Below, one piece after another: positions 19,901 to 62,437 of a DNA stretch of 64,000 nt (position 1 is its first letter; every line of letters starts with the position of its first letter). Below the pieces are notes generated by a model. That model did not search any database, was not told the DNA's origin, and saw only the letters and a program-made list of their open reading frames with translations. Origin of the DNA: a virus; the IMG/VR virus record IMGVR_UViG_3300044623_001092. One strand, given 5' to 3'. Made by a program: the position numbers and the translations under genes.

Positions 19901-22900
19901 GTTTTTTTCCAATATAATATCAACATTACCACCACCAATTGTCAATGAGTATACTGTAGTTAATCCACTTGCAACAGGGTCATAATTTCCCGCATAATCA
20001 AAACTTTTCCAAGAATTATCTAAGATATCATTTCCCGTTTCAATATAGTTTTTATATCTATGCCAAATTGACCCATATTTTAATATCCAAGCATATGGTA
20101 CTCTATGAATAGCCCCAAATTTTTTCATAGTAGCAAAAATATAATCTAAATCAGTAGTAGAACCACCTGTATTTTTGGTTTTATATTTCTCCCTTAATGT
20201 CGCCAAAGGTAAACTATTTAAAAACAAATAAGCGGCCTCTTTATATGGGTATAAGTCAGAATTTCTAAAATTATCCACACCATTTTGGATTGCATTAACA
20301 AAATAAGGTGTGTTCATCATTGATACCGTTTGATTAGTATTAACATTCCCACTGTAATTTACGTATTTTAAATTACCTTCAGTAAAAAACTGTTTTTCAC
20401 TAGTTCTATCAGAATAATAATTTTTAACATCATTACTTTTAATACCATCCGAACTTTTTAAGAAATTACTAAAAGGTAAACAAACTGTTTTATCATCATC
20501 ACCACTTTTAAAGTTAGTAATTATTTTTTTACTTTTATTAAAGTTCAATACCTTGGTTGTATTAAACGCCACACTAGTATTTGCGATGGTTACACCATTT
20601 GCAAGATTTCCTTGTTCCCAATTTAAATCCGTAAATGGATATGTTTCAGTAAATGTCACAGAATTAGATGTTGTGGATGCTGATATATAATTAGTAATTA
20701 CAGGTTCAGTTTCTAATGAGATTGTTATATCTTTACCCGAAATTTCCGACATAATTTCAAATTGAGAATCATTAACATAGTTCTTTAAATAAACCGTATT
20801 GAATATCCCTCTAATATAGTTCTGCCAACTTAAACCAACTCCGTCATTTGATATATGTTTTAATGTTGGTATAATATTTCTCGAATTTAACGCATAATCT
20901 TTTAGTTTTAAAATTAAAAATGGATTACTATTAGATAATGATTTCAAGACATTGTTACTTTCAACGTCAGCAACAACTTGAGCAATACTATCAATTTCAC
21001 CCGTACCATAAACTCTACTTAATCGAGTATAATAAGTATAAATTAATAATCTTTCATATAATTCGTAGATAAATTTTACCTCTTCTTTATTACCAAAAAT
21101 CTCATTACTTGCAGGATATTCTATAGAATTTAATGTTATTCTTTGTGTTTGGGTTTCACCATTATTACCCGCCGTAGGGTCTGATGGTGGTGTTGTTCGT
21201 TCAACAAATCCTTTTATAAATTCCTCAACAAATTCAATTTCTGGCCACACATCAAATAAAAAACCTTTAGTTTTACTAACCACTTTAGAATCACCAGGAT
21301 ACTGTATTTCATATTTTTCATGACCATCTTCACCCGATGTCGAAACAATGTATTGTGGCCAAGGATAAACAGGTATATCACTACTCACATTAACATCTTT
21401 AGTATCAGGACTAGCGTTAGAAACATCTTTATCAAAGATAGCATCTTTTCTAATCTTATCATCCCTAACATTCCAAGCCTTAGTATGTACCTCATCTAAT
21501 AGACGTAAAAACGCTTCACCATTAGCAAAAATAACGGCTAACACATTTCGAATGTTAGGTGTAAACCCAATACCATTAGTTTTACTTACCAATAATTTTG
21601 ATAATGACTCTGTTAAAGCGGTCTCAATCTCTTCACGGATTACTTTTAAGTCTTTAGACATTTTACCCGTTAAATCCATAAAAGAATTAGAACCCTCAAA
21701 TTTAAACCATTCAGTTGGTAATATTTTAACATTATTAATGTTAACCTCATTTGTAACATTAAAAATACCAGCCTCTTTTAGTTCATTTTGAAAATTCTTA
21801 ATATCATCAGGTGATGGGTCAACTTTAACTTTTTTAACTTGTCTATATGTCGGAACATAATCAATTTCTGACGGTGTTATTGTTGCCGTAAAAATATTTT
21901 CAGTTATTCGGTTTTCAACTTGACATGTTTTACGGTTACCATCAATAGTATACCCACCATTTATTCCAACAGTTTTATTTTTATTTAATAAGTCATTATA
22001 CTCACCCAACTTACCAAATAATTCAGTTTTAGCGTTTTTTCGACTTTGTTCATCTGACAATTCTTTTTTAAAAGTATAAACTTTAGTTCCATCCTTTTTA
22101 ATTAAGAAATTGGTTCTATCCATATATTTATCAAACCAAGACCCTTTTCCATCCGATAAATATAAGAATATTTCTTTCTCATATTCATTCAAAGTACTCT
22201 GATAAGTATCAATATCGGTTATTGGGTCTAAATTAGCTTTAGTAAAAGAATCTAAAGTATTTTTAATAAAGTTTTCAATGTTATCCCTCATTTGTACAAT
22301 AGTTAACTCAGGAAAATCGTCAGGAATTAATCCTTTTGATTTATATTCATTGTACATTTCTTTCACTTTCTGATAACCTTTCTCAACAATAGCATTATCA
22401 ACGTTTGAAAAATTACTAGGTCCACCTTGTTGGGTTTGGACTTTTAATCTTGATTTATACATATGAGGTGTTGCAATAAGATACCCCATACTTATCTCAC
22501 CTAAAATAGTATATTTGTAAGTATAAAAATTTAAACTAATTTTAAAATTCCCATCACCTGAATCATATCGAGATGAAAAACTTTGTAACATTAACGCTAA
22601 TTTAACCGCTTTACCATAATAACCTTTAATAGTTAAATGGAATAATGGATAAGGTAAATTGAAGAATGCCGCGTATGGTGAATTATCCCCCGCTTCAAAT
22701 AACGCACGACCTTTAACGTCCTCTAATTGAATGTCTACTCGTGGCATAAATGAAAGGTCCTGATTAATACTAATACTTGTCATACCTAACAATCCATTGT
22801 CAGTTGCTCCTATATCACCATTAGATTTAGTTGTTTGTTTGATATACCAATCTTCTTTGTTTTTAGGATTAAAAATTTGTTTTTGTGTTGGTTGGTTAAT

Positions 22901-23215
22901 ACCTTTACCATCTAAAGAACTTTGTCCCGTTATTTCATTTGTATAGGCATTATCTAATAATCCTTTACCTCCAGGATTAAGAAAATTAATTGATGCCAAT
23001 GAAACTGTTTGGATAGCGTCACCATTTGCCGACCCTACCGATAATTTAGTTCTCGGTAATACTCTACACTCTAAGTTAGCATACATTACCAAGTTTTCTT
23101 GTTTTACATATCGTTCTTTTACATTACCATCTAAATCAACCACTTTATTGGGGTCAACAATTGTGATATTATTGTAATCAAATTCTACTAAAATATTTTC
23201 TATTTTATCTGCCAT
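16919..23215 (-). CDS. Very large baseplate hub protein (gp27/late-control-D-like C-terminal region) with a possible terminal GH73-like hydrolase domain
   Basis: CTVSMMGNALIQPTMYFNL...GPYMIQTVSHSITQGSFETIITG resembles the gp27/GPD C-terminus; follows the LysM/gp53-like gene. Confidence 0.65.
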   Translation of the reverse strand: MADKIENILVEFDYNNITIVDPNKVVDLDGNVKERYVKQENLVMYANLECRVLPRTKLSVGSANGDAIQTVSLASINFLNPGGKGLLDNAYTNEITGQSSLDGKGINQPTQKQIFNPKNKEDWYIKQTTKSNGDIGATDNGLLGMTSISINQDLSFMPRVDIQLEDVKGRALFEAGDNSPYAAFFNLPYPLFHLTIKGYYGKAVKLALMLQSFSSRYDSGDGNFKISLNFYTYKYTILGEISMGYLIATPHMYKSRLKVQTQQGGPSNFSNVDNAIVEKGYQKVKEMYNEYKSKGLIPDDFPELTIVQMRDNIENFIKNTLDSFTKANLDPITDIDTYQSTLNEYEKEIFLYLSDGKGSWFDKYMDRTNFLIKKDGTKVYTFKKELSDEQSRKNAKTELFGKLGEYNDLLNKNKTVGINGGYTIDGNRKTCQVENRITENIFTATITPSEIDYVPTYRQVKKVKVDPSPDDIKNFQNELKEAGIFNVTNEVNINNVKILPTEWFKFEGSNSFMDLTGKMSKDLKVIREEIETALTESLSKLLVSKTNGIGFTPNIRNVLAVIFANGEAFLRLLDEVHTKAWNVRDDKIRKDAIFDKDVSNASPDTKDVNVSSDIPVYPWPQYIVSTSGEDGHEKYEIQYPGDSKVVSKTKGFLFDVWPEIEFVEEFIKGFVERTTPPSDPTAGNNGETQTQRITLNSIEYPASNEIFGNKEEVKFIYELYERLLIYTYYTRLSRVYGTGEIDSIAQVVADVESNNVLKSLSNSNPFLILKLKDYALNSRNIIPTLKHISNDGVGLSWQNYIRGIFNTVYLKNYVNDSQFEIMSEISGKDITISLETEPVITNYISASTTSNSVTFTETYPFTDLNWEQGNLANGVTIANTSVAFNTTKVLNFNKSKKIITNFKSGDDDKTVCLPFSNFLKSSDGIKSNDVKNYYSDRTSEKQFFTEGNLKYVNYSGNVNTNQTVSMMNTPYFVNAIQNGVDNFRNSDLYPYKEAAYLFLNSLPLATLREKYKTKNTGGSTTDLDYIFATMKKFGAIHRVPYAWILKYGSIWHRYKNYIETGNDILDNSWKSFDYAGNYDPVASGLTTVYSLTIGGGNVDIILEKNTTISMGPGLTDTSSLINVGFYPKTLNDFNVFYQGFMLYTGYTSTDIQYGIASGLTLNYVDGAIINQSTNLLNTSTADTKNLKVIPWSIYVKTLDDTSFYLMPSEGSIINQTYQECFNGNEQKIEVTGNTAVFNGSVRTFWAAPNYGYFDVDKLIKPTPSQYLKEIFTGLTSSQENFSINGDSNGYDDISEMFSVFEKDVLDILEQEFLNYSKTIYDTLEGDPTHNFQSMMRTLAKIPKTTGTNSTNLIENIQLKQVENLNNTIIEFMNSKKIIKFGNPTNYNKKLFYTFSFLNIVDQYKYGDYSIVTPNALPPNTNLVTSITNYPNEWKALETYVGFSNIDKLKYDDNGSYITDFFIDNNVSFEISNIKDLAPLIKIYATNKLKDSTFNNTKFLQSMTDYLTQTDYFLDKVFDNIMITLNKKLPNVNNSPENQVVSDLEGPQSKIELWESFKSLNDKWISGNDFKVKTLFEDILLLDRASRNIGEKVLVDVYKLKNRLQNVLDSPKVSMLSFVQTILQENNFVVHNLPSYVNFYNVQDVSKNPKPKPEGTLEFANTLFGTFMDVDYRESGPKMVCYYAGKPSEQLDLKENVDYRYRNDAFDLRRVDNPLVENQVGKKDWDKSNKVVGFNVDIGPQNQSMFYGFMVDQKNSSSTVESLEVINQMANQAGNRGGSSQSLSLYNLYKNRSYTCTVSMMGNALIQPTMYFNLRYVPMFNGPYMIQTVSHSITQGSFETIITGIRQPTASLPKIDGYIQTLKNNLLKSIIENNKKDKEAKEKESKNADGTAKSQQEKIQAISGGDKELTQPQTCKPVAPYDEFHDITPTVNNSTFSKVKNELKNVLISDGVDGSVLQYVVFAALYVESANGDIKMTAYESNYGGVTLSDGAWGSSETYFIGNKQFFCLTSANDSTILPYAVFNDLYNHLKFIVGRWKSRMGSVEVTASSIAKFLIINNLTIKGPMMKDMSVYNSYDKTKLKNLEDKVKKSIDVYNAIN

Positions 23216-23531
23216 AATATAAGAAGTGGTTATCTAATGCGTTTTTATAATCTTGTAAAGAAGCTACTAAAGGAACTGGAATTGTCAAGATTGAACCATC
23301 AGGAATATTCCATTCCAATCCTCCGTACATGGGATTAGCAATTAAAATTAACCACCCAAAGTATGGGGAACCATAATATTGTTGTGATAAAATATCTAAT
23401 CTTGATTGTCCAACCTTGTAAATATATCGTTTATCACTAGTTTTAGTTGGTAATGTAATATACGGAACAACCGTTTGTTCACCATTTAAAACAAAATTGT
23501 TATATCTGTTATAATATTGTCTTCCAGCCAT
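23205..23531 (-). CDS. LysM/tail-X/gp53-like baseplate protein
   Basis: RLDILSQQYYGSPYFGWLILIANP...IPDGSILTIP. Confidence 0.8.
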   Translation of the reverse strand: MAGRQYYNRYNNFVLNGEQTVVPYITLPTKTSDKRYIYKVGQSRLDILSQQYYGSPYFGWLILIANPMYGGLEWNIPDGSILTIPVPLVASLQDYKNALDNHFLYYGR

Positions 23532-26500
23532 TATATCGTTATTTTACCATCAAAAGTTGATAATACTGTAGCATCGGAACCATAATTAGTTGTACCATAA
23601 ATATTTTTAAGGGTCTGTTCTTGAACTTCGTTATTTGTGTCGTCTTTAATTGTATTATAATCCATTCTTCTAACTTTACCTTTAGGATACATAACTTCAC
23701 TAATACCCGTAGTATATTTAGTATATTCTTTATCTTTCTTAAAATCACTAATAAGTTTTTCCTCTTTCTTTAATTCTTTAAGATAATCGTCAGATAATTT
23801 ATCACAAATTTTATTAAAATATTTTTTAATTTTTTTGTTTACATCATTAGTTAAAGGACCTGAAATAACAAAATCTTTAAAACCTTGTAATTTACTACTA
23901 TCGGTTAAAACTCTTGCCATCACCATAAAAAACAGTACATTACTAATATCAGTTAATGGTTTAAATGGTTCACCATCACCAATATTAAAGTCTTCAATTA
24001 TTAACTTTTTAGTTTTTAATAATTTATAAAAATCCTCTAAACTTTTTGGTAATTTGTCGTAATCAGTTTCAAATTCAATAAACGTATTAGCGGCAATACT
24101 TGTACTACTAACATCACCTTGTTTTGTCGAACCACTAAGATTATATACTTCAGGTGTTAACCCATCTTTAATTATACCATCAGTTTTAGTTTTTACTAAA
24201 TTAAGTTGTCTTATCAAACCTAATAATTCATTTTGTTGTGACACCATATCACCAATAATAGTTGATAATCCTGAATTATAATCACTAACCATGTTATTCA
24301 CATATTGTTCCATGTTTTGTCTCAACAAAGTCATACCAACAGTTCCATCATCAATATTTTTATCGTCCAAAATATATCCAATTATTGGATTAACATTACC
24401 AACTTTAATAAATGTAATTACTTTTTCAAACAATGTTTTAGTTTGTTCAGTTATATCGGGTTTACCATAAATTATGTTAGTTCTATTTACGACCCCAATA
24501 GTACCATCCGTATATTGACGAGTACCAATATTATTCATCATTTGTAAAGTACCATAGTTATATTGTAAAACCACTTTTTCCATTTGATTTGGAATATTAG
24601 TATAATACTTAGTGGACACATCTAATAAACTATCCATAACTTTACCATACAGAATTTCTCCCGTATCACCAATAGTTGCTGGTGTTGTTTTAATTTCACC
24701 AATTGGTGTTCCACCTTTATTCGGTTGCTGATTATTAACCGTTTCATTTTTACCGTTACTTGAATTTGCAACAATAGAGTCAAATATTTTTTTATCTAAG
24801 GCCGAAGTATCTTCAGTTGCCGTAGCTCTTTCGTCATAAATCTCAGTATTCGCATAATAATTGAAAGACAACGCGTTCTGTAATTGGTCAACAGGTCCTT
24901 TTAACCCCATACCACCAATTATGTTAAAACCTAAACTAACCTCAACTATCATTGGTTGAACTCCAATACCTTCAGGGTTCATATCAAATAATAATGGGTC
25001 ATATGTGAAACTAAGATTATTAGGTATAATTTTAGTATGATAGAAATCACCAATCCTAAGTACTAAGACAGGTGCTGAACCAAATGATGTATTTGTCGCA
25101 TCATTATAAACAGGTTTCCCATCAGGACCAATAACAGGAATCGTATCACCAGGTCTAACACATTGATTTAAAAATGTTATACGAGAATTTAACCCTTCAG
25201 GTGTCATTGAGTGAAACGCTGGATTGAAGTACTTAATTTTTTCTTTAAATGAACTATAAATCATCGGGTCATTTTCTTTAATCATGTCAAAATAATCACA
25301 TTCTGACAATAAAGCCCTTAACACTTTTTTACTTAACCCTTCTTTAAAAGTTTTACTAACATCCTTAGTTGGTTGTGGTTTTAATGGTGTTATTTTATTC
25401 TCAATAGTTTCAGGTTTTTCAATAACAGGAGGTGGTGGTGGTGGCATAGGTTCCGCAGTTATATTTTTGATATTAACACGTCTACAAGCCATCGCACTTA
25501 ACGCATATTTTTGAGATACCGCATTACTAACACCTGTACTCCCTGATATATCAATATGACAATCTATAGATTCACCTGAACCCCCATCACCTTTTGGTAC
25601 TATCACGGTTTCAATTTCACCTTTAGCAGTTGCTGAAACAACTTTAAATTGTTCTTTACCAGCAACCATAAATTCACCTAAATTAGCCTCACCTATTTTT
25701 GTCGTTTTAAAAAATTCTTTAACAGAACTAATTCTTCGTTCTGATAATGATTTATTATAATCAACTGAAGCAACGGCCGATGCCGAACCAACCATAGTTA
25801 TAGTAATACTTTTTAATGTTTTACTTTTAAGTAAATTATAGGCCTCAACAATAAAACCATCAGTTTTTGTAATTGTTTCATAATTCCATTTAATTAAATT
25901 AAAAAAGGCATCCGTATTACGATTGATGTTACCTTCATCAAATGTTACTTTTGATTTATTATAATAGTTATCAATATTACTATCACTAGTATATACGTCA
26001 TAAGTTCCTTTATAATTAGTTCCCGATGTTTTAGGTATATCATTTTCAAAGTAAAAAGAAAAATCTTTATACTTATTTTCAAATTCTTTTGCCGCGGTAT
26101 CCGAAGTTGTTGATGTCTTTTGTGGGTCACCTGTACTAGCGGCATTACCACCTGTACTCGTATTTTGGGCTGGTATCGACTGTTTTAACGTTGATAATTC
26201 TTCAGGTGTTAATCTTGGGTTGTTTAATGCGTTTTGTATTTGTTCTAATTCGGAAACAGGTACTTTGTTATATTTTAGAGCTAAAGTATATAAATCAAAT
26301 TTAGCACAACCCGCAAAAAACGATTCAATAATAGAATTAGTTCGTTCTGAACTAGCATCCTTTAATTGGTGATTCACAATTAAATTCAAAACCGATGGGT
26401 GGTCAACTACTATTTTCCAAGATAAACTACCCGTTCTACTCGTATCTTTATAAGTATAAATTGGTTCAGGTCTACCGATAAAACTAGTTGGATTCCAATT

Positions 26501-28333
26501 CGCCTGACTTGAATCATTAAACTTAATGTCATACGGTGGAAACCACATAACACGTCCACCATTTGGACCTCTTTCACATACAGGCAAATCACTTACTCGG
26601 AACCCATCACGTCCTGAAGTTCTCCAAGCTAAATTCTCAATTGAGAACATATATTTTTTAGCGTAACCCCCAGCATCATTCCAACCCGTTCCAGCAACAA
26701 TATTTGATGACCCAGGATTCTTTAACGGAGCAATATTAAGGTTAAACGTATTATCTAATACAGAATTATTAAATTGTCGACCTGAAGTAGTAATACCATC
26801 AGTTTTTTGTAAATCGGAGTAAGTATAATACGGTGTATCTTTAGCAAATACTCGACAATATTCAACCCCCGCCTCAGCACCTGTCGTATTATCTGTATAT
26901 GATACAACTTGAGAACCTTTAGTCATTTCTTTATAACCATCATTAAACACTTTGGAAACTTGATTAATTGCGTTACCAACATGTTTTAATCTATTTGGAC
27001 CCGTAACGTTATCCGCAGAATTAATTAATTTTTGAGTATTATCAAGTATTGAATCATTTTTTAATTTTAAATTAGTCGATTCATTGCTTTGATATTTAGA
27101 ACTAATAATATTAAATTCTTCATCAACACCACCTGTTCCACCACCAACTGTTGGACGAAATCCAGCATTACCTTTATACTTTGGTGATGTCCAAACAAAA
27201 TTACCATCAATACTTTTACCATCACCATTTAAACCAAAATTTAAAGTACTAATGTTACCCTCATATAATTTAGAAATCTCATCAGGACCATAAACAGGTG
27301 CCAATACTTGTTTACCACTAGAGTTAACAGGAATTTGATTTGCTGGTGAAGTAATTTGAGATGGGTCTGAATTTGGACTACCGATATAAAAACTACTTGT
27401 TACCGTACCATTAGGATTTATAGCATTAGCAATACTATTAACTAATCCGACAACCGCACCTATAGGTCCACCAATTTCTGAGTCATAATTAGGTGAATAT
27501 TTATTATAATATAAATTGGCAAATAAAGCCGACTTTTGACCATTACCCGTATTAGCTAAAAATATTTGTGAAGGGTTTCTTTTTAAATTTAAAATAGGTC
27601 CAAGTAATCCTCCCGTTAAATCATTAACGGTACTTAAAGCTCCCGAAGTTTGTGACGTTGGTAAACTATTATTAGTATTTTCTTCAAAATAATCACCAGG
27701 GATAAATGAAACGGGCCAATAAGCCCCCGCAAGTCTTGTGGCGAAATCCGCCGCCGCGATTATAGGATTTTCAGGAATTGTTATCTTCCAATTTCTATAA
27801 ATTAATGGTTGTTGTCCTGTGGCGATTAAGGCAGCTTGAAATGGGTCTTGTAATGAACTTAAATTAACAACACCAACAGTACTTTGGTATATTTCAAAAT
27901 TTATTCTATCTTCAAACGCTTTCTTTAAAAAAGTCGCACCTAATTTAGCTAGATAAGAATCTTGAGATAATGAACCATCAGAACCTGTTGGATTATTATT
28001 AAGTAATATTGAATATGGTGTATATTTTGACGGTAAAAAACTTTCTAAGTATGGACCTTGATTTGGTGCGTTATTTAACACCTGAAAATCATACATACTT
28101 AAATTGTACCCACCGTTAGGACCAAAACCATTAATAACATAATAATTAGTCGGAGACAAAATATTAAGATTATTAGGGGAATCAATTACACTAAAATTAC
28201 TTAAACTTGTTTCATAATTAATAGCACCACTTGGTGGACTATAAGTACCTGTAACACTATAGGGACTTAAATTTTTTACAATTAAAGTATTTCTAAAACT
28301 TGTCGTAGATGCAAATGATAATGGACTTGGCAT
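23531..28333 (-). CDS. Baseplate / tail-tube initiator-like protein with an inserted OmpA-like domain
   Basis: Lies between the tape measure and LysM genes. WFPPYDIKF..GRPEPIYTY and PVLVLRIGDFY tube-initiator-like segments flank YFENDIP...GSAS...YNKSLSERR...CRRVNI. Confidence 0.6.
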   Translation of the reverse strand: MPSPLSFASTTSFRNTLIVKNLSPYSVTGTYSPPSGAINYETSLSNFSVIDSPNNLNILSPTNYYVINGFGPNGGYNLSMYDFQVLNNAPNQGPYLESFLPSKYTPYSILLNNNPTGSDGSLSQDSYLAKLGATFLKKAFEDRINFEIYQSTVGVVNLSSLQDPFQAALIATGQQPLIYRNWKITIPENPIIAAADFATRLAGAYWPVSFIPGDYFEENTNNSLPTSQTSGALSTVNDLTGGLLGPILNLKRNPSQIFLANTGNGQKSALFANLYYNKYSPNYDSEIGGPIGAVVGLVNSIANAINPNGTVTSSFYIGSPNSDPSQITSPANQIPVNSSGKQVLAPVYGPDEISKLYEGNISTLNFGLNGDGKSIDGNFVWTSPKYKGNAGFRPTVGGGTGGVDEEFNIISSKYQSNESTNLKLKNDSILDNTQKLINSADNVTGPNRLKHVGNAINQVSKVFNDGYKEMTKGSQVVSYTDNTTGAEAGVEYCRVFAKDTPYYTYSDLQKTDGITTSGRQFNNSVLDNTFNLNIAPLKNPGSSNIVAGTGWNDAGGYAKKYMFSIENLAWRTSGRDGFRVSDLPVCERGPNGGRVMWFPPYDIKFNDSSQANWNPTSFIGRPEPIYTYKDTSRTGSLSWKIVVDHPSVLNLIVNHQLKDASSERTNSIIESFFAGCAKFDLYTLALKYNKVPVSELEQIQNALNNPRLTPEELSTLKQSIPAQNTSTGGNAASTGDPQKTSTTSDTAAKEFENKYKDFSFYFENDIPKTSGTNYKGTYDVYTSDSNIDNYYNKSKVTFDEGNINRNTDAFFNLIKWNYETITKTDGFIVEAYNLLKSKTLKSITITMVGSASAVASVDYNKSLSERRISSVKEFFKTTKIGEANLGEFMVAGKEQFKVVSATAKGEIETVIVPKGDGGSGESIDCHIDISGSTGVSNAVSQKYALSAMACRRVNIKNITAEPMPPPPPPVIEKPETIENKITPLKPQPTKDVSKTFKEGLSKKVLRALLSECDYFDMIKENDPMIYSSFKEKIKYFNPAFHSMTPEGLNSRITFLNQCVRPGDTIPVIGPDGKPVYNDATNTSFGSAPVLVLRIGDFYHTKIIPNNLSFTYDPLLFDMNPEGIGVQPMIVEVSLGFNIIGGMGLKGPVDQLQNALSFNYYANTEIYDERATATEDTSALDKKIFDSIVANSSNGKNETVNNQQPNKGGTPIGEIKTTPATIGDTGEILYGKVMDSLLDVSTKYYTNIPNQMEKVVLQYNYGTLQMMNNIGTRQYTDGTIGVVNRTNIIYGKPDITEQTKTLFEKVITFIKVGNVNPIIGYILDDKNIDDGTVGMTLLRQNMEQYVNNMVSDYNSGLSTIIGDMVSQQNELLGLIRQLNLVKTKTDGIIKDGLTPEVYNLSGSTKQGDVSSTSIAANTFIEFETDYDKLPKSLEDFYKLLKTKKLIIEDFNIGDGEPFKPLTDISNVLFFMVMARVLTDSSKLQGFKDFVISGPLTNDVNKKIKKYFNKICDKLSDDYLKELKKEEKLISDFKKDKEYTKYTTGISEVMYPKGKVRRMDYNTIKDDTNNEVQEQTLKNIYGTTNYGSDATVLSTFDGKITI

Positions 28334-40039: not shown

Positions 40040-41557
40040 ATGAAAACATTAGAAGATAAAGTCAAAGTACTGACTGAAAATATTAAAAAAGAAGACGCCA
40101 AACGAACTTTACTTAGTGAAGCTAAAAAAATCGGTATAGAAAAATTACCATATTCTTACTCTGCCTTGAAAAATTTCATTGATTCGGAAACAATGGATTT
40201 TCACTACAACAAACATTATAAAGGATATGTTAAAAAATTAAACGACGCATTATCTAAGAAAGATTATGGTGATGTTGAACTTGAGGAGATAATTAAACGT
40301 ATTGGTAAGTACAACAAAACAATACGAAATAATGCGGGTGGTGCTTTTAACCACGCGTTGTTTTGGAAAATGTTATCCCCAAAAGAACAAGAATGTAGTG
40401 GACCAATTTTAAGGAAAATTAATAGTTCATTTGGTAGTTTAAAAGAATTTAAAAATAAATTTGAGGAGGTTGCTAAAAATAGATTTGGTTCAGGATGGGT
40501 TTGGTTAGTCTTAACTAAACGTAACACTTTAAAAATAATCTCAACACCAAATCAAGATAACCCATTAATGAATGTTATTCGAAATGGTGGTTATCCATTA
40601 CTTGGTTTAGATTTGTGGGAACATTCTTATTATTTAAAGTATCGTAACAAGAGAGATGAATACATCCATAATTTTTGGAAATGTGTTAATTGGGAATTTG
40701 TTAATGAATTACTTAAAATGAAAACTAAAACAACTATTAACGAAAATTTTAAATTGAAACGAATTATTAATGAAGGTGTGTCTGAAAGATGTAGTCGAGG
40801 TGAAGTTCAATTATATCGAAATTTATTTAACACCAATAAGTTTGTGAAGAATATTTACAGATACGGTGTTGAGAAAATTTTAAGTGAAGTTTTTCCCGAT
40901 AATTATTATGAAAAAGACGCTTATGGACCAAATCAAATGTTAGGAATATATGATTTTGAACAAAAAGGTAGGTCGGTGATAAATAAAATGAATACAAATT
41001 ATGAAGTCTTTTGTGTTTTATTAAACGACATTAATATCGTTATGGAAAAATTGGGTAAACCTAAAATTACTTTTAAAAATAAATCCGTAGGTGAACAAAT
41101 TAATGAAGCGAAAAGATTAATTAGTGTAGCTAATGAATTTAAAACAAGGATTTTTTCATTATCATCAGGGACTTTTGAAAATATTATGGTCACACTTGGT
41201 AGTACTAACTCACTTGGCGAATTAACTGAGATAAAAGTTGTTGAGATTCTTAAAAAAGAATACGGTGATAAAAATGTTGAAAAAATTGGTGAACTTGGTA
41301 ATACTGTTGATGCGATTGACGGTATTGACTGTGAAGTTAAAATTGGTGATGAAATTAAAACCGCACAAATTAAACCATATAAGTCCTATGATTTAGTTGA
41401 TGGGTTTTATAAAATGTTAGATACTGGTCAAGTTAATCCGTATAAAACGGATTGGTTAATTTTTTCTAAAAATAATAAAGACGCTATGATATTTGATAAT
41501 AACGGTATTAAGATAGTTAAAGGTAAAATACAACATAAGCTAAATATTTATATATAA
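40040..41557 (+). CDS. Mn/Fe superoxide dismutase fused to an unrelated C-terminal domain
   Basis: LPYSYSAL, HYNKHYKGY, NNAGGAFNHALFW, FGSGWVWL, NQDNP, DLWEHSYY (all four metal ligands present), followed by about 275 extra residues. Confidence 0.9.
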   Translation: MKTLEDKVKVLTENIKKEDAKRTLLSEAKKIGIEKLPYSYSALKNFIDSETMDFHYNKHYKGYVKKLNDALSKKDYGDVELEEIIKRIGKYNKTIRNNAGGAFNHALFWKMLSPKEQECSGPILRKINSSFGSLKEFKNKFEEVAKNRFGSGWVWLVLTKRNTLKIISTPNQDNPLMNVIRNGGYPLLGLDLWEHSYYLKYRNKRDEYIHNFWKCVNWEFVNELLKMKTKTTINENFKLKRIINEGVSERCSRGEVQLYRNLFNTNKFVKNIYRYGVEKILSEVFPDNYYEKDAYGPNQMLGIYDFEQKGRSVINKMNTNYEVFCVLLNDINIVMEKLGKPKITFKNKSVGEQINEAKRLISVANEFKTRIFSLSSGTFENIMVTLGSTNSLGELTEIKVVEILKKEYGDKNVEKIGELGNTVDAIDGIDCEVKIGDEIKTAQIKPYKSYDLVDGFYKMLDTGQVNPYKTDWLIFSKNNKDAMIFDNNGIKIVKGKIQHKLNIYI

Positions 41558-55244: not shown

Positions 55245-56492
55245 TTATAAGTTTCCTGTTAATCTATCACACCACCCTTTTGATTGACTATGAGGCCAAA
55301 CAACCCAATGACTTGGTTTATGTGTTGTTTGAAATTGTCTCCATACTTTACAATAACCGTCAGGGTCATTTTTCATATTTCTAATTTCATTTTGGTCAGC
55401 ATCTTGTCTATGTATTGTTTCATCGTTCTCATCGTGGAACGCTACTACCCAAAAATCATAATCATCTTCAGGAACACTATCGTAACCAATATCAATACAA
55501 TGTTTGAAGATACTAGCAAAACTACTTAACCATTCTTCTTCCGACTCAAAAATTTGAGGATTTGGAGGATATTGTTTATCTAAAGTATGTTGTTGTACTG
55601 CTCTTTTTGAAAATAATAAACCCGAATAAATTTCGTATTCTTTTAATGTACGTTCAGTCCCAAAACCGTATTGACCAAATTCTAATGTTACTTCTTCACC
55701 ATCCATTCCGAATAGTTGTCTATTTTTTGAGTGTGATATACTATTTTTGGTCCCCCAATCTTTATCATCGTCCCATTGTTTTGTTCTCCCCTTACGAGTA
55801 TATTCGTGCCAAACAACGACTTTATGTGGGTGGAATAAATCGTATCCGTGAGTATATGCTCTTGCAGCGATTGAAATCTCTTCACCATGGAAATAAAATT
55901 CAGGGTCATGTTGTACCTCAGTACTGAATTGACCAACAGTAAATGCGAAATGCGCTGAGTAGAATCTTGATGTTACAGGTTCTTTTAGTTTTTCCCAACT
56001 TGGTATTGTTTCAGGTAAGAAAAATACCGCACCTTCAGGAATGAATCTGTCAAACGCCATTCTCCATGGTTCTTTAATTCGTTCTGCGGGGTCATTTTCA
56101 GGATTGAATGAAGAAACATATCCCGTTAAAAGAGGTTTTTCAAAACCTTTCTTTTGAAGTTGTTTAATCATTTTAATTAATGTGTCGTCCCAATCCTTTT
56201 CAAATCTCATATGTGAGTCAATTTGAAGAGTATATTCCTCACCACCATATAATTGTTGAACTTGATTTCTTGCCCAACAAACACCTTTAGATTCAGAATA
56301 TAAAACATCCGTAACTCTAAAACGTTTATCTTTACTATATTCCTCTAACGAATCAAATCCGTCTTCAGGATGATATTGTCGACAAATACCAATAACCAAA
56401 TTTTTCGGTCTTTTAGCATTTTCAATCATACTTTTAATGGTTGGGACTAATTGGGGGTCTCTATACGAGGCAATTTGAATAAAAATTTTCAT
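55245..56492 (-). CDS. GT60-like polypeptide / Skp1-hydroxyproline N-acetylglucosaminyltransferase (GlcNAc family)
   Basis: IFIQIASYRDP, SKGVCWAR, LQIDSHMRF..DWD, FHGEEISIAARAYTHGYDLFHP..VVWHEY are hallmark motifs of this family. Confidence 0.85.
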   Translation of the reverse strand: MKIFIQIASYRDPQLVPTIKSMIENAKRPKNLVIGICRQYHPEDGFDSLEEYSKDKRFRVTDVLYSESKGVCWARNQVQQLYGGEEYTLQIDSHMRFEKDWDDTLIKMIKQLQKKGFEKPLLTGYVSSFNPENDPAERIKEPWRMAFDRFIPEGAVFFLPETIPSWEKLKEPVTSRFYSAHFAFTVGQFSTEVQHDPEFYFHGEEISIAARAYTHGYDLFHPHKVVVWHEYTRKGRTKQWDDDKDWGTKNSISHSKNRQLFGMDGEEVTLEFGQYGFGTERTLKEYEIYSGLLFSKRAVQQHTLDKQYPPNPQIFESEEEWLSSFASIFKHCIDIGYDSVPEDDYDFWVVAFHDENDETIHRQDADQNEIRNMKNDPDGYCKVWRQFQTTHKPSHWVVWPHSQSKGWCDRLTGNL

Positions 56493-56553
56493 ATAATATT
56501 AATTTTATAAAAAAAATAATATTATAACCTAAAAAATAAACGTAAAATAAAAA

Positions 56554-57015
56554 TTAAATACAATAAGTCCCTATGGTTATTACGATACCTTCATCAGACG
56601 ATGGTGTTTTACCGCAAACGTATATTTCGGTGGATGGGTTTAAAGTACTATTAACCATAATACTATTACAATTAATAAAGTTATACATTAAAAAACTTAA
56701 TGTTGGATTATTAAATGTTATATTATGACACGAGTTAGGGGTGGGTGTTGGTGTTGGTGTCATTGTCGGAGTCATTGTTGGTGTTGGGGTTGGGGGGCAT
56801 GCCACATATTGAAAGGTTTCACAACCTGATGAATCAATAATTTTAATTAATAAACTATTAACACCATTAAGTTGTGACGGTATATTAATATATAAATAAG
56901 GTGGAACTGAAACAACTCCTGTCTCAACAGTATAACAATAAGTATTTGTTATATCACATATAATAATGTCGTAAGGTGAATGACCTGTTACACCTGAAAT
57001 TTCAATAATTTGCAT
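56554..57015 (-). CDS. Small putative virion protein with a Pro/Thr linker
   Basis: Two small Cys-containing domains joined by PPTPTPTMTPTMTPTPTPTP; TATTTATA motif upstream. Confidence 0.65.
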   Translation of the reverse strand: MQIIEISGVTGHSPYDIIICDITNTYCYTVETGVVSVPPYLYINIPSQLNGVNSLLIKIIDSSGCETFQYVACPPTPTPTMTPTMTPTPTPTPNSCHNITFNNPTLSFLMYNFINCNSIMVNSTLNPSTEIYVCGKTPSSDEGIVITIGTYCI

Positions 57016-57044
57016 AATCTTCAGTATAAATATAATTCAACATA

Positions 57045-59588
57045 TTAATTATTAAACTGTAATAATATACCACCACTTCCATTTTGAAGAGTTAATCGAC
57101 TACCATCTTGTAATAACAACACACTAAAAATAGTTGTTGGTGTTACTGTCATTGTTGGAGTAACTGTCATTGTTGGTGTAACAGATGGCGTAGGCGTATT
57201 AGTTGGTGTTTCAGTTACTGTTGGTGTAGGTGTGTTAGTTGGTGTTTCAGTTACACTTGGAGTTATTGATGAAGTAGGTGTTTGTGTCGGAGTATCCGTT
57301 ACTGTTGGTGTAGGTGTTTGTGTTGGAGTTTCAGTTATACTTGGTGTAGGTGTTTGTGTTGGTGTCTCAGTTACTGTTGGTGTAGGAGTGTTAGTTGGTG
57401 TTTCAGTAACGGTATTCGTAGGGGTATTGGTTGGGGTCTCAGTTACTGTAGGTGTTGGTGTTTCAGTTGGAGTGTTGGTTGGTGTTTCTGTATTAGTTGG
57501 TGTTGGAGTGTTGGTTGGTGTTTCTGTATTAGTTGGTGTATTAGTCGGAGTTTCAGTAACACTTGGTGTTGGGGTATTAGTAGGTGTTTCAGTATTTGTC
57601 GGTGTTTGAGTTGGCGTAGGGGTTTCAGTGTTAGTCGGAGTGTTAGTCGGAGTCTCAGTTACGGTAGGTGTTGGAGTTGGAGTTTCAGTTGGTGTGTTAG
57701 TAGGTGTTTCGGTTACAGTTGGTGTTGGAGTTTCAGTTGGAGTATTAGTTGGTGTTTCAGTTACACTCGGTGTAGGGGTACTAGTAGGTGTTTCAGTATT
57801 AGTAGGGGTGTTGGTCGGTGTTTCAGTTGGAGTATTAGTTACAGTTGATGTTGGGGTGTTAGTTGGTGTTTCAGTATTAGTAGGTGTTTGAGTTGGAGTT
57901 TCGGTTACGGTGGGTGTAGGTGTTTGAGTTGGGGTTTCGGTTACGGTAGGTGTTGGTGTGTTAGTTGGGGTATTAGTTGGTGTTTCAGTTACAGTTGGTG
58001 TTGGTGTTTCAGTTGGAGTCTCAGTTACTGTAGGTGTTGGGGTACTAGTTGGAGTCTCAGTATTAGTTGGTGTATTAGTCGGAGTTTCAGTAACACTTGG
58101 AGTAGGTGTACTAGTCGGTGTTTCAGTATTAGTTGGGGTGTTAGTTGGCGTTTCAGTTGGGGTGTTAGTTGGCGTTTCAGTAACAGTTGGTGTTGGGGTC
58201 TCAGTATTAGTTGGTGTATTAGTTGGGGTAGGTGTGCTAGTCGGTGTTTCAGTATTAGTTGGAGTGTTAGTTGGTGTTTCAGTAACTGTTGGAGTTGGAG
58301 TTTCGGTAGGTGTTTCGGTAACCGTTGGAGTAGGTGTTTGAGTCGGAGTGTTGGTTGGTGTTTCAGTAACAGTTGGTGTAGGCGTTTCAGTTGGAGTTTC
58401 AGTATTTGTTGGTGTGTTAGTAGGGGTCTCAGTAACAGTTGATGTAGGCGTTTGTGTTGGAGTTTCGGTAACAGTTGATGTTGGGGTATTAGTTGGGGTT
58501 TCTGTTACGGTATTAGTTGGCGTGTTAGTCGGTGTTTCGGTTACGGTATTAGTTGGCGTATTTGTTGGTGTTTCAGTGTTAGTCGGTGTTGGTGTTTGTG
58601 TTGGAGTTTCGGTAATAGTAGGTGTCACAGTATTGGTTGGGGTAACGGTATTAGTTGGGGTAACAGTACTCGTTTGTGTTGGGGTTTGTGTTGGAGTTTG
58701 TGTTGGTGTTTCTGTTACGGTAGGTGTTGGAGTATTAGTCGGTGTTTCTGTATTTGTTGGTGTGTTAGTCGGTGTTTCTGTATTTGTTGGTGTGTTAGTC
58801 GGTGTTTCTGTATTTGTTGGTGTGTTAGTCGGTGTTTCTGTGTTAGTTGGTGTTGGTGTATTGGTAGGTGTTTCGGTAATAGTCTGCGTAGGAGTTTGAG
58901 TAGGTGTATCAGTTATTGTTGGTGTATTTGTTGGTGTTTGTGTTGGGGTTTCAGTATTAGTTTGTGTTGGTGTGGAAGTATTCGTTGGCGTAGGAATATT
59001 AACAGTTATTGTTGGAGTTTGTGTCGGGGTGTTTGTTGGGGTATTTGTTTGAGTATTTGTTTGAGTATTTGTTGGGGTATTTGTTTGAGTGGGTGTTTGT
59101 GTTGGTGTTTGAGTTTTAGTAGGTGTATTGGTCGGTGTATTAGTTGATGTTACGGTCTTTGTTGGTGTTGGTGTTCTAGTTATTAAACAAGGGTTTAATG
59201 TTTTTGTTGGTGTTTGTGTTTGTGTTGGAGTTTGTGTTTGTGTTGGAGTATTAGTGGGTGTTTTAGTTAATAAACAAGGATTTAATGTTGGTGTTGATGT
59301 TGGTGTTTTAGTATTAGTTGGTGTAGGTGTTTTAGTATTAGTCGGCGTAGGTGTTACTGTTGGTGTTGGTCTATAAACATTTAAAAAATTAGGACAATCA
59401 CTACCTTCAACTAATATAGTATATGTACCATAAACCTCTCTTGAAGGAATTAATAAAGAAGGTTCAAAATCGAAAGGTAATTCAACATCACCTAAATTAA
59501 TAGTAATAACATCATTGTCTGGTTTAAAAAGAATATTAGCAATTTCCCCATCATAGTTGATACTACTTATCGTTATTATTTGAGACAT
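57045..59588 (-). CDS. Mucin-like Thr/Pro-rich protein (847 aa)
   Basis: About 75-aa N-terminal domain, about 745 aa of TPT(N/Q/P/E/S)T / VTETP repeats, short C-terminal [14 protein letters not shown] motif. Confidence 0.85.
57130..59370 (-). repeat. Low-complexity coding repeat (G/T-rich on +), including a perfect 30-bp x3 tandem at 58741-58830
   Basis: ggtgtttctgtatttgttggtgtgttagtc occurs three times; the remainder is synonymously diversified. Confidence 0.9.
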
Positions 59589-59605
59589 TCTCTATTTTTA
59601 ATTTT

Positions 59606-62437
59606 TTAAAATTTATTTTCAATCGCTAGACAAACTTCACCGTTTTCTCTGATTAATCTAGCCATATCAGTAAATGATATATAAGCGTGACCTGATTTAC
59701 CCCAAGTTTTACCCCAACTATTCTTAATTCTAAATAACTTTGTGTTTCTGTCAACACCATTTATAATATACGCGTGTCCGCCAACAACTCTACCTAAAAC
59801 TCTAATAACACCATTTCTGTCGGGAGTAAACATTGATGAATACCATTTAGTACCAACAACAACAGGTCCTTTAGTTAAAACGGTGTCAATCAATACATTA
59901 ATATCGTATGTCCATAAATATGATGAAATTCTATTTGTAGTTCTCAAATATTTGGCGGCACCTCTTACTGATGTACCGTCATAATTCTCACCAACCCACT
60001 CATCAACCTTTTGGGCTTCACGATAAATTAATGTTGGTGGAACAATAGGTGCGACACCATCATGTCCAACAGGACCATCTTCAATCCAATGAGCCCAAGC
60101 ATAACCAACACATTGAGGTGTCTTACCTTGATTACCCCACCATCCATTAGCGTCCCAATATTTGGAAGTTAAAATGGTTTTTGGTAACGTTAATTTATTT
60201 TCTATTAAATATTTTTTATCACGTTCATCAGGTATAAAAACACGACCTAAAGAATATGGTGTAATTAAATTATTTTCATTTGATTCACTAATGACATATG
60301 TGAAATCGTTAATCTCACAGAAACTAGTAGAACAATCAGGACAATCAGGATTAAACATTTCAAATTTCTGATTTAATATCTTGAAATTATGTTTAACTTC
60401 AGGTGCCGACAATGGTTCAGTATACATTCTGAATTGTGAAATCGCACCTTCGAATGTACCTGCAAAATTTTGTTCGATTAATATGTTAGTTTTTAAACCA
60501 TTAAAAGTTGTACCCGTTAAATCATTAGTTGGTAAACATTCTGGGTCTTGAACATATGGGCCAAATGGTTGTGTCGTTGAAGAAAATGTTAAATTTTCAC
60601 GTAAACCTTGAGTTCCTCCACCCCATGAAACATTAAATGGTACACCGACTTGTTTTTCTTTGTCAGTACTTAATGCTCTTGGAATAACTTCTTCAAAATC
60701 TTCAATAGTATCAAATATCTGACCATTAATGTAAATTTTTAATCTACCTTTTCGATATTTTGAACTTGTTATCCATTTATCGTTCATTCTAACTAACTCA
60801 ATTAATTCCGCAACTTTACCATTTTCAGAGGTGTAAGGAACGGTAATTAATGACGTTGTATTATTTGCTAATGACTCTAAATATTCTTCTTTGGTTATAT
60901 CACTTAATCCACCACGATAAAACAAATCACAATCATCTAACCAAGTATAACGTTCCCAAACAAAATTTACTTGGAACCAGTGTTCTTCATTTAACCACGC
61001 AGGATTTTCTTTTAAACATCTTGGGTATATTGGTGGGGTACAATAATCAAATACGGTGTATCCTGTAACAAATGTTACCCCTGTTGTAGAACAAGTACCA
61101 GTAGTTTCACAATCACCTGTTATCCTTAACGCTCTTACCCCTATTTGAGGGTTTTTAGGGTCACCACATAATCTAAATGATAATGCGTTTGATAACGAAT
61201 CAAATAGTGGGTCAGATTCACAAGTATTTTCAATAGATGTAAATCCTGTGTAAACACAATCACAATCATGACAAGTATCACATGTTGTACATGTTGGTGT
61301 ACATGTTGGTGTTACAATACAACCATCGGGTGTTGGGGTTGGTGAAGGTGTTGGAGTTGGTGTTGGGTAGATAACTGTTGAACATTCATGTTTTTGGCAT
61401 TCCCATCCACATGTTTTACATTCAGACTCATAACATCCACAACCACATGTTAATTTTAATTTTTGATTTCCATTACAAATATCACAACCATAATTTACAT
61501 GAGGGTCATGTTGATTATTAATTGACCTTGGAGGGTAAACATAGAGACAACGACTATTAGTGATTGTTTTATTACAACAAGCACAAGTTTCTAATTTAGT
61601 TAATCCTGAAGTAATTCTGGTGTATCCTGTAAAACAATTAGGTGTACCATCGGCATGGTGATAAAATTTATTTTCGGCTCTCGCCCCAATATAGAAAAAG
61701 GTATTTTTATTTTGGGGGTATATTTCGTTTAATGTTGTCTCACCAACACCTGGTTGGTATTCGTTAAATAACCTTGGTTTTAATAACATTTCAACGGACC
61801 AACCTTTATTCATCCTGTTAGGGAAAATATCGTAATCATAACCAAATAATTTATAAAATCCTTGATAAAAACCACCGTATAATTCATGGTACTTACCCAC
61901 ATACGGATTGTCTTTACTAACAACTTCGTATAATATTGTTTTGTTAAACCCTGAGAATCTAATATTAGGTGAACTAGTGTTACCTGTTACTTGGAATAAT
62001 TTTAAACGTCTATCAAAATTTAAACGTTCAAATTTTTGACTATCATTAAATAACCCATCAGTAAAATTAATTGTTTCACCTGTCATTTTATCAACAAGAC
62101 CATTATCAATACCTGTTAACCCAATATCACAAGATGAATGACCTGTAAAACAAGTTAAATCAGTATTGTCGGGATTATAAAAGTTTTGAGAAACAAATAT
62201 GTTATTTTGATTATAATTTTTATATGTTAAAGACAACCCCTGAGATGTTAAAGGATTATCAATATCAAAATAGAATGGTAACTTATTACCGTATGTCTGA
62301 GCAATCAAATATGGGGAGAAAACAACCTCTTGATTGTACCCCTGTTCATCTGATGTTAATGACATATCATATGACTCATTAATGAGTTTTACACCCCAAT
62401 TTGGATAAACATATTGATTAATATTTTGACTCGCCAT
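59606..62437 (-). CDS. Multidomain protein: LamG-like scaffold with Cys-rich and PT insert, plus C-terminal papain-like (C1) cysteine peptidase
   Basis: GWSVEMLLKP...LKIYING...FEGAISQFRMYTEPLS (LamG-like); NQG..QCVGYAW, GGHAY, IKNSWGKTWG (C1 catalytic Q/C/H/N). Confidence 0.75.
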   Translation of the reverse strand: MASQNINQYVYPNWGVKLINESYDMSLTSDEQGYNQEVVFSPYLIAQTYGNKLPFYFDIDNPLTSQGLSLTYKNYNQNNIFVSQNFYNPDNTDLTCFTGHSSCDIGLTGIDNGLVDKMTGETINFTDGLFNDSQKFERLNFDRRLKLFQVTGNTSSPNIRFSGFNKTILYEVVSKDNPYVGKYHELYGGFYQGFYKLFGYDYDIFPNRMNKGWSVEMLLKPRLFNEYQPGVGETTLNEIYPQNKNTFFYIGARAENKFYHHADGTPNCFTGYTRITSGLTKLETCACCNKTITNSRCLYVYPPRSINNQHDPHVNYGCDICNGNQKLKLTCGCGCYESECKTCGWECQKHECSTVIYPTPTPTPSPTPTPDGCIVTPTCTPTCTTCDTCHDCDCVYTGFTSIENTCESDPLFDSLSNALSFRLCGDPKNPQIGVRALRITGDCETTGTCSTTGVTFVTGYTVFDYCTPPIYPRCLKENPAWLNEEHWFQVNFVWERYTWLDDCDLFYRGGLSDITKEEYLESLANNTTSLITVPYTSENGKVAELIELVRMNDKWITSSKYRKGRLKIYINGQIFDTIEDFEEVIPRALSTDKEKQVGVPFNVSWGGGTQGLRENLTFSSTTQPFGPYVQDPECLPTNDLTGTTFNGLKTNILIEQNFAGTFEGAISQFRMYTEPLSAPEVKHNFKILNQKFEMFNPDCPDCSTSFCEINDFTYVISESNENNLITPYSLGRVFIPDERDKKYLIENKLTLPKTILTSKYWDANGWWGNQGKTPQCVGYAWAHWIEDGPVGHDGVAPIVPPTLIYREAQKVDEWVGENYDGTSVRGAAKYLRTTNRISSYLWTYDINVLIDTVLTKGPVVVGTKWYSSMFTPDRNGVIRVLGRVVGGHAYIINGVDRNTKLFRIKNSWGKTWGKSGHAYISFTDMARLIRENGEVCLAIENKF

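Follow-up and report, generated by a model that had tools for sequence, protein, structure and literature searches.

What kind of gene encodes a protein made largely of threonine and proline, and what might a virus do with its product? The question is raised by a complete open reading frame (ORF) in a stretch of 64,000 nucleotides (nt), hereafter the window, from the virus record IMGVR_UViG_3300044623_001092, whose 847-amino-acid (aa) product a preliminary description had called a viral mucin. The gene and its unusual composition are real and its evolutionary origin can be explained: judged from its sequence, the 847-aa protein belongs to an unnamed family of phage proteins in which an N-terminal domain (N-domain) is followed by Pro/Thr linkers and variable distal modules, and the gene is best explained as a recombinant in which, within the tracts, the head of one tandem paralog was probably fused to another's body and tail. 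As for its role, we infer that a virion-bound and sugar-coated protein is the best-supported reading. The full explanation, a recombinant of a modular fibre family that is glycosylated by adjacent enzymes and forms a filament on the virion, is held tentatively, at somewhat less than even confidence.

The composition itself is beyond dispute. A tract of 746 aa (residues 73-818) contains 359 Thr, 162 Pro, 68 Asn, 51 Glu, 34 Val, 26 Gln and 19 Ser, which together account for 96.4% of its residues (Thr 48%, Pro 22%; Thr, Pro and Ser together 72%), in line with the ~745 residues first reported, and 84% of alternate tract positions are occupied by Thr. The tract begins with a Lys-containing part that holds two LNPCL(L/I)T units and continues as an acidic TETP body, just as had been described: all eight Lys/Arg lie within aa 73-158, Cys 105 and Cys 134 are each inside one of the two units, Glu first appears at aa 213, and the whole tract has 53 acidic against 8 basic residues. 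The preliminary description also saw a protein-level repeat maintained while it changes length. The pattern is indeed kept while synonymous sites are randomised and length varies, but there is no fixed repeat unit; what recurs is composition, a (T-X)n pattern whose units of 10-12 aa are loose, in which Tandem Repeats Finder reports a loose 36-nt period (63% matches) and one clean 30-nt array. The synonymous scrambling of the DNA is borne out by the 28 copies of the peptide TETPTNTPT, encoded by 24 different DNA strings, and by codon sharing between identical peptide repeats of 0.47-0.56, against 0.43-0.46 expected if the gene's codons were drawn at random; its third positions are used much as in the other genes of the window. 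A perfect threefold 30-bp repeat at 58741-58830, presented as the sole exception to the scrambling, is exact, but it is part of a longer array, and it is not alone: exact repeats of at least 31 nt in the gene comprise this array, a 36-nt tandem pair and a 41-nt dispersed pair (57526-57566 and 58060-58100). None of the gene's 31-mers occurs elsewhere in the window, and the plus-strand ORFs of 80-190 aa within the gene are Gly/Val-rich antisense shadows of the tract. The identical protein in the ESM Atlas (Table 1) possibly comes from the same sample.

Table 1. Coordinates of the 847-aa gene, its parts and its neighbours in the window, with the corresponding genes of the closest IMG/VR relative, L082
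Feature	Position	Strand	Basis or remark
Complete ORF, 847 aa, mucin-like Thr/Pro protein	57045..59588	-	ORF translation; identical sequence in ESM Atlas
N-terminal domain, aa 1-72	59373..59588	-	Small six-strand beta-sandwich; putative virion anchor
Basic tract head, aa 73-212	58953..59372	-	Collinear with linker of 592-aa paralog of L082
Acidic tract body, aa 213-818	57135..58952	-	3' part collinear with tract of L082 443-aa paralog
C-terminal tail of 29 aa (aa 819-847) and stop codon	57045..57134	-	Two (hydrophobic)3-Q-(D/N)-G-S units
Perfect 30-bp tandem repeat, ~3.5 copies, recent expansion	58735..58841	-	Public-run contigs break here
Recent 36-nt tandem duplication, 38-nt exact overlap	57466..57539	-	Contig break 57496-57536
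PF11397 (GT60-type) polypeptide GlcNAc-transferase homolog, 415 aa, candidate initiating enzyme	55245..56492	-	Pfam E 6e-72; phrog_24687 E 8e-169
943-aa upstream gene, 17 nt from the 847-aa ORF	59606..62437	-	Cys-rich region, PT linker, C-terminal papain-family peptidase; conserved left border of variable cassette
153-aa neighbour, own small N-terminal domain and PT linker	56554..57015	-	Truncated relative to 475-aa L082 ortholog
L082 592-aa gene			Same N-domain, basic linker with two NPCL units, folded C-domain
L082 606-aa gene			B-type N-domain, two LamG modules
L082 443-aa gene			B-type N-domain, acidic TETP tract of ~350 aa, tail like that of the window
L082 475-aa gene			Ortholog of the 153-aa gene of the window

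The word mucin needs care here. The protein has a long Pro/Thr/Ser tract with repeated units, as mucins do, and it has neither the signal peptide nor the membrane anchor by which a mucin enters a secretory pathway: no leader or membrane segment was found in the 847-aa protein, in agreement with what had been stated, the top 19-residue Kyte-Doolittle mean being 1.28, at the tail, and the N-terminus carrying no hydrophobic or basic leader. Nor is the tract a short interdomain linker, since it runs to 746 aa and is flanked by a folded domain at just one end. Moreover, the genes of the window are of T4 type (sheath, tail tube, gp25, baseplate J, T4 baseplate proteins and gp32) and include, among those for replication and metabolism, a UvsX-like RecA, a DnaB-like helicase, both subunits of ribonucleotide reductase (RNR) and a family-B polymerase (PolB). 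Because sheath, tube, gp25, baseplate J, gp32, UvsX, RNR and PolB genes stand together in the window, the virus can be identified as a bacteriophage, an uncultured T4-superfamily jumbo myophage of lake water, and not a virus of eukaryotes. The meaning of 'mucin' therefore changes, and the sense in which eukaryotic viruses might carry one had to be given up for a bacteriophage protein made in the bacterial cytoplasm. The nearest relatives of the sheath are uncultured huge phages and a Microcystis phage (~30% identity), no nucleotide match of the window to any cultured phage was found, and the stretch, with a genomic G+C content of 31%, is present in 24 lake-water metagenome runs. Among large aquatic phages, the moraphages are rich in glycosyltransferases, with Bacteroidota predicted as hosts (PMC12619734).

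Membership in a modular family accounts for the architecture. The N-domain stands at residue 1 in 30 IMG/VR and 70 JGI loci, with RPTPT linkers and a variety of C-terminal modules behind it, and its profile matches 348 cluster representatives, nearly all at residues 1-75, a count that may be slightly inflated by two sequences of the other (153-aa-type) N-domain in alignment A1. Thr/Pro tracts occur in 80 of the 98 fetched family members of at least 200 aa; these linkers often carry single (N/D/E)PC units, and their usual role is to join folded modules. The distal modules of relatives are Laminin_G_3 (LamG), lectin-like and other domains, some of which match virion-structural PHROGs (phrog_8510, 2.6e-24; phrog_10356, 9e-7). 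Like its relatives, the 847-aa protein begins with the conserved beta-sandwich domain at residue 1, and its gene occupies the family's cassette position between the papain-peptidase gene and the PF11397 transferase; a folded distal module is lacking, and the 29-aa tail alone follows the tract. Compared with the ~250 relatives examined, it has by far the longest tract: strict Thr/Pro windows cover 687 residues, against 273 in the runner-up among 167 family proteins fetched, and the longest continuous tract in any gene of 80 related loci has 642 aa. In its parts the protein combines known kinds of things, phage fibre proteins with PT linkers and phage virion glycosylation, and it is the extreme member of its family.

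The preliminary description spoke of small terminal domains at both ends. At the N-terminus this was right; the last 29 aa form a motif and not a domain. The tail is about three-quarters identical to that of a paralog present in two related contigs (443 aa in L082, with the tail at 15080-15164; 351 aa in L081), and similar tails end the family members P0008 and P0080 and occur in loci L046 and L101. Because P0008 combines the N-domain type of the 847-aa protein with such a tail, modules are evidently shuffled within the family. The tails of these otherwise different members share a recurrent C-terminal motif of two units, each with three hydrophobic residues followed by (Q/E/D)-(D/N/A)-(G/S).

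The N-domain is predicted with confidence by AlphaFold2 as a six-strand sandwich (mean pLDDT 83.7). Its identity to relatives is 63-100%, with M1, I5, I7, P38, G54 and C65 invariant, and it ends at an invariant Cys, in the family form Cys-x6-(Y/P)RPTPT. The N-domain of the B-type paralogs is homologous to it (hhalign probability 97.7%). A likeness by eye to the N-domain of the neighbouring 153-aa protein was rejected as homology (BLASTP E 1.3, hhalign probability 2.5%). Neither the N-domain nor the whole protein has a match in Pfam (even at E up to 10) or PHROG, and a tblastn search of 50,697 cultured-phage records found no copy of the domain. Structure searches returned generic Ig/FN3-like matches or matches resembling the C-terminal domain (CTD) of the type IX secretion system (T9SS) (VIA Z 5.0-6.3; Foldseek E >0.1). 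Virion-attached fibres are usually designed with a conserved N-terminal module and exchangeable distal ones, and by analogy the N-domain may be called a virion anchor. As a separate observation, T9SS C-terminal sorting domains of Bacteroidota were among its nearest non-viral neighbours (window 59364-59588) in two separate structure searches, with VIA Z of 5.0-5.5 and Atlas TM of 0.59-0.67 to Por_Secre_tail clusters; this may reflect only a common sandwich fold.

How such a tract came about is suggested by the cassette in which the gene lies. Family genes lie there in tandem, as paralogs, in a variable cassette bounded by the papain-peptidase gene on one side and a glycosyltransferase island on the other, and L082, whose transferase is 91% identical, has four genes where the window has two (Table 1). 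Window DNA is collinear from 62437 to 58815 with the upstream gene of L082 and the first ~800 nt of its 592-aa gene, and then from ~58175 to 56636 with the body and tail of its 443-aa gene and the start of the next gene. Because collinearity switches from one L082 gene to the other, the two-part tract is best explained as a paralog junction inside linkers, whichever arrangement came first. In length the tract exceeds its two parental tracts taken together and must therefore have kept growing. The 153-aa neighbour belongs to a second family, with the N-terminus M..I.I[TS]...PYD..ICD, whose members in other related loci (L063, L055, L036, L067) reach 1792 aa, with a large Thr/Pro content.

If the gene arose by recombination, could it be an accident without function, a neutral or decaying by-product of deletion between paralogous tracts, or even a jump between tracts in short-read assembly? 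We regard this as very unlikely. It is true that the locus lacks, relative to L082, two distal modules, one whole gene and one N-domain, that the next gene is truncated too, and that JGI contigs of close relatives end inside the tract. However, contigs of four independent lake runs match 56500-57495, 57537-58089, 58162-58764 and 58812-60355 without difference, at depths similar to those of the flanks; of the three breaks between them, two lie within exact repeats and the third starts at one, in each case a repeat of at least 31 nt, and a single linear path leads through all segments despite the dispersed 41-nt pair. The frame stays open for 2.5 kb in an A+T-rich genome, with its regular Thr spacing and randomised third positions; this openness, the absence of the gene's 31-mers from the rest of the window, the growth of the tract beyond its parents and a second genotype with the same long-tract form (below) all argue against an accident. 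Apparent joints in some contigs were rejected as rearrangements: their short sides measure 20-34 nt at 90% likeness and are taken to come from other tracts or phages. On the side of the accident reading stands one further contig, L124 (OFRA01010009.1, gene start at 1156): it is 97% identical, but its N-domain is frameshifted from about residue 60 onwards and its tract is read in another frame, through a sequencing error or in a disrupted copy. In the bin 59180-59313 of the window, which spans the two LNPCL units, summed contig depth rises to 1,500-3,500 from 5-200 elsewhere in the gene, and this stretch is common to very many other lake-metagenome contigs.

The second genotype comes from a JGI contig of another lake, L120, whose N-domain is identical in protein sequence and is followed by nothing but tract for at least 470 aa, the contig ending before any globular domain; because of this length, two genotypes at least have the long-tract form. 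In a comparison of the window with L120, DNA identity is 96.8% in the N-domain and 94.7% in the upstream gene, whereas the tract is 69.7% identical with 197 gap columns in 1494, so that the tract diverges about ten times faster than its flanks. The comparison of repeat length among homologs that had been proposed thus finds both these gaps and a tail-bearing paralog of 351 or 443 aa in L081 and L082, with gene DNA otherwise identical and the downstream 2 kb 100% identical, although the difference may reflect repeat collapse in assembly, which is also how the accident reading would explain it. Near 58667-58675 one run has a variant with 6 nt inserted in frame. The L120 divergence, the two forms of the paralog, the 6-nt variant and the 30-nt and 36-nt duplications together support rapid change of tract length under a constant amino-acid pattern.

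The case for a sugar coat begins two genes downstream of the 847-aa gene, with the PF11397 homolog of polypeptide N-acetylglucosamine (GlcNAc) transferases, which carries a DSH metal-binding motif and no membrane segment and has 418 relatives in IMG/VR. Both it and the 847-aa protein lack export signals, and with their genes two apart they form a putative acceptor-enzyme pair. Further transferase-like and methyltransferase genes lie downstream of it, to which relatives add GT2 and GT10 genes, and of 64 related loci 50 have a co-oriented Thr/Pro-tract gene in the 8 kb upstream of the enzyme, compared with 41 of 548 among downstream ORFs. Among cultured phages only XacN1, Xoo-sp13, CM1 and RAS14 have the enzyme, at 45-48% identity; a phmmer search with it against PDB sequences gave no match, and no prolyl hydroxylase was seen among the window proteins scanned. 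PF11397/GT60 enzymes modify mucin-type proteins and the hydroxyproline of Skp1 in Dictyostelium (Gnt1/Gnt2). The Trypanosoma cruzi member of the family adds alpha-GlcNAc to Thr of the mucin peptide KPPTTTTTTTTKPP (PMC3769586). The resemblance to these protist systems (T. cruzi TcOGNT-2, Dictyostelium Gnt2 and Gnt1) lies in a Thr-rich, Pro-containing acceptor beside an enzyme of the same Pfam family and, for the cytoplasmic Gnt1, which acts on Skp1 hydroxyproline, in a phage enzyme that likewise looks soluble and cytoplasmic. Protist mucins, by contrast, pass through the Golgi and are GPI-anchored or secreted, whereas the phage protein has no signal peptide and would be made in the bacterial cytoplasm.

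Among phages, XacN1 offers the closest parallel (Yoshikawa et al. 2018, PMC5852040). This jumbo myophage carries a PF11397-type enzyme 48% identical to that of the window (ORF334), a homolog of the papain-type peptidase and many (TP)n linkers; we count 36 (TP)5-like sites in it, against 0 in the control, some of them in the 3313-aa ORF325 beside baseplate genes. Schiff staining detects glycoproteins in its virions, which the authors attribute to phage transferases (PMC5852040). The differences are that the virion proteins that carry the sugar are not named there, that no near-pure Thr/Pro protein is reported, that its host is proteobacterial, and that the N-domain of the present family is absent from it as from all cultured-phage records. 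In mycobacteriophages, too, phage transferases decorate the phage's own virion proteins, although according to the summary in PMC12619734 of Freeman et al. 2023 the glycans there sit on short C-terminal extensions of capsid or tail-tube subunits and other enzyme families are involved. The literature searched does not describe any mucin-like protein of a jumbo phage.

Two further comparisons are less close. In bacteria, glycoside hydrolases and surface proteins have Pro/Thr linkers, for instance the PT boxes of Cellulomonas fimi, that are extended (P-T)n chains, some of them O-glycosylated and, if so, protease-resistant. These linkers share with the phage tract its (P-T)n composition and, in the rest of the phage family, its placement between folded modules, but they typically measure 20-100 aa and join two domains, whereas here 746 aa end in a 29-aa tail. 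The glycosylated surface fibrils of Mimivirus are built on folded proteins and not on low-complexity tracts, and Hoc of phage T4 is an Ig-like decoration protein. They too are virus-encoded coats of long or sticky appendages, and the small sandwich modelled here would be Ig-like; no sequence or specific fold relation to either was found, however, the structure matches being generic.

Taken together, these observations suggest a possible course of events. Recombination would have joined one paralog's N-domain and basic linker, with its Cys units, to the acidic tract and 29-aa tail of another, with loss of all globular distal modules and growth of the tract to 746 aa. The protein would be synthesised in the host cytoplasm, where ~360 Thr might be O-glycosylated, the soluble GT60-type GlcNAc-transferase starting chains that the downstream transferases and methyltransferases extend. 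Docked on the virion by its N-domain, it could then project as a hydrated, negatively charged, protease-resistant filament with a contour of ~200 nm and serve as a mucin-like coat or tether. The length is arithmetically reasonable, and so was the earlier expectation of a filament well over 100 nm: at 0.25-0.31 nm per residue, the values for mucin and polyproline-II chains, 746 aa give ~190-230 nm. A stronger version would make the protein a true, fast-evolving phage mucin, carrying hundreds of O-glycans supplied by the phage's own cytoplasmic GT60-led pathway, held by a new kind of virion-anchor domain, with Cys units that might cross-link after lysis, and forming a glycocalyx with a depth of ~200 nm, which would control how the phage adheres to host capsule or algal mucilage and would protect the particle; in this strong form the proposal is doubtful.

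Several points weigh against a glycosylated, virion-bound filament. The contigs of the public runs each cover part of the tract, so that they do not directly show the copy number at the 30-nt and 36-nt arrays, the long-range order or continuity over the full length. The fold matches of the N-domain are generic, so that its role as an anchor is an analogy with other modular phage fibres. The loci that show the gene pair are all close kin (enzyme 76-91% identical), and what they document is therefore conserved synteny and not independent association. The glycosyltransferase island abuts a DNA polymerase gene here, in XacN1 (PolB/RNase H) and in RAS14, and phage transferases are known to modify DNA (preprint 10.1101/2023.12.21.572611). 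Expression, virion presence and glycosylation of the 847-aa protein are predictions from gene content, and without a distal module for binding the protein could also have arisen as a mere recombination by-product.

The location of the island speaks for an alternative that we consider unlikely, in which family and virion location are the same and the tract carries no sugar. The protein would then be an overgrown Pro/Thr linker acting as a semi-rigid, acidic entropic spacer or bristle, and the targets of the transferases would lie elsewhere, in phage DNA, glycans of the host envelope or other proteins of the virion. Hypermodification of DNA is a common task of phage glycosyltransferases, and in all relatives the tract is an interdomain linker of ~30-130 aa, both of which fit a bare spacer. 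However, characterised PF11397/GT60 enzymes act on polypeptide Thr or hydroxyproline, and XacN1 virions do contain glycoproteins. The DNA transferases of the preprint (10.1101/2023.12.21.572611), moreover, are JGT-like GT-A enzymes (R..DDD..EDY motifs) or GT-B enzymes and not members of PF11397.

The lack of a distal binding module speaks for a quite improbable alternative, that the protein is no part of the virion. It would then work inside infected cells or be set free when they lyse, perhaps as a soluble polyanionic polymer that captures debris or decoys or that conditions the environment of the burst. The gene does lie outside the recognisable tail and baseplate modules of the window, and the papain-type homolog of XacN1, ORF382, is not among the enzymes reported to be packed in its virions. 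By contrast, modules with matches to virion-structural PHROGs occur in paralogs and orthologs that have this N-domain, virion-attached fibres are usually planned as a constant N-terminal module with varying distal parts, and the protein has no signal peptide for export. Virion attachment, glycosylation and biological role of the 847-aa protein thus remain inferred, with the glycosylated filament our preferred explanation.

If the tract is glycosylated and on the virion, it would be the clearest candidate yet for a phage-made mucin, and protein O-glycosylation of the protist GT60 type would extend to bacterial viruses. Abundant lake phages would then spend resources on a sugar coat, with possible effects on adsorption, aggregation, grazing and particle persistence. 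As the locus illustrates, low-complexity linkers can serve as recombination seams for the shuffling of fibre modules and grow quickly. Because Thr/Pro tracts break short-read assemblies and are almost without tryptic sites, proteins with such tracts are probably under-reported in metagenomes and virion proteomes; in the 847-aa protein, residues 159-829 are free of Lys and Arg.

The 943-aa upstream protein has a long N-terminal region of no known family, and its peptidase part (PF00112; phrog_16701, 1.5e-54) is 37-40% identical to genes of XacN1, CM1 and RAS14, phages that also share the PF11397 enzyme. The ortholog of the 153-aa gene in L082 (15212-16639) encodes a multi-module protein of 475 aa.

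Elsewhere in the window, the T4 late-promoter motif TATAAATA occurs at chance frequency (17 found, 16.5 expected). A 505-aa phage protein at 40040-41557 on the plus strand has a complete Fe/Mn superoxide dismutase domain at residues 34-223, followed by ~280 residues that match no known family. Two very large minus-strand ORFs lie between the replication and tail genes, one of 2098 aa (16919-23215) without family and one of 1600 aa (23531-28333) with a weak OmpA-like peptidoglycan-binding match (E 5.8e-5, under the Pfam cut-off).

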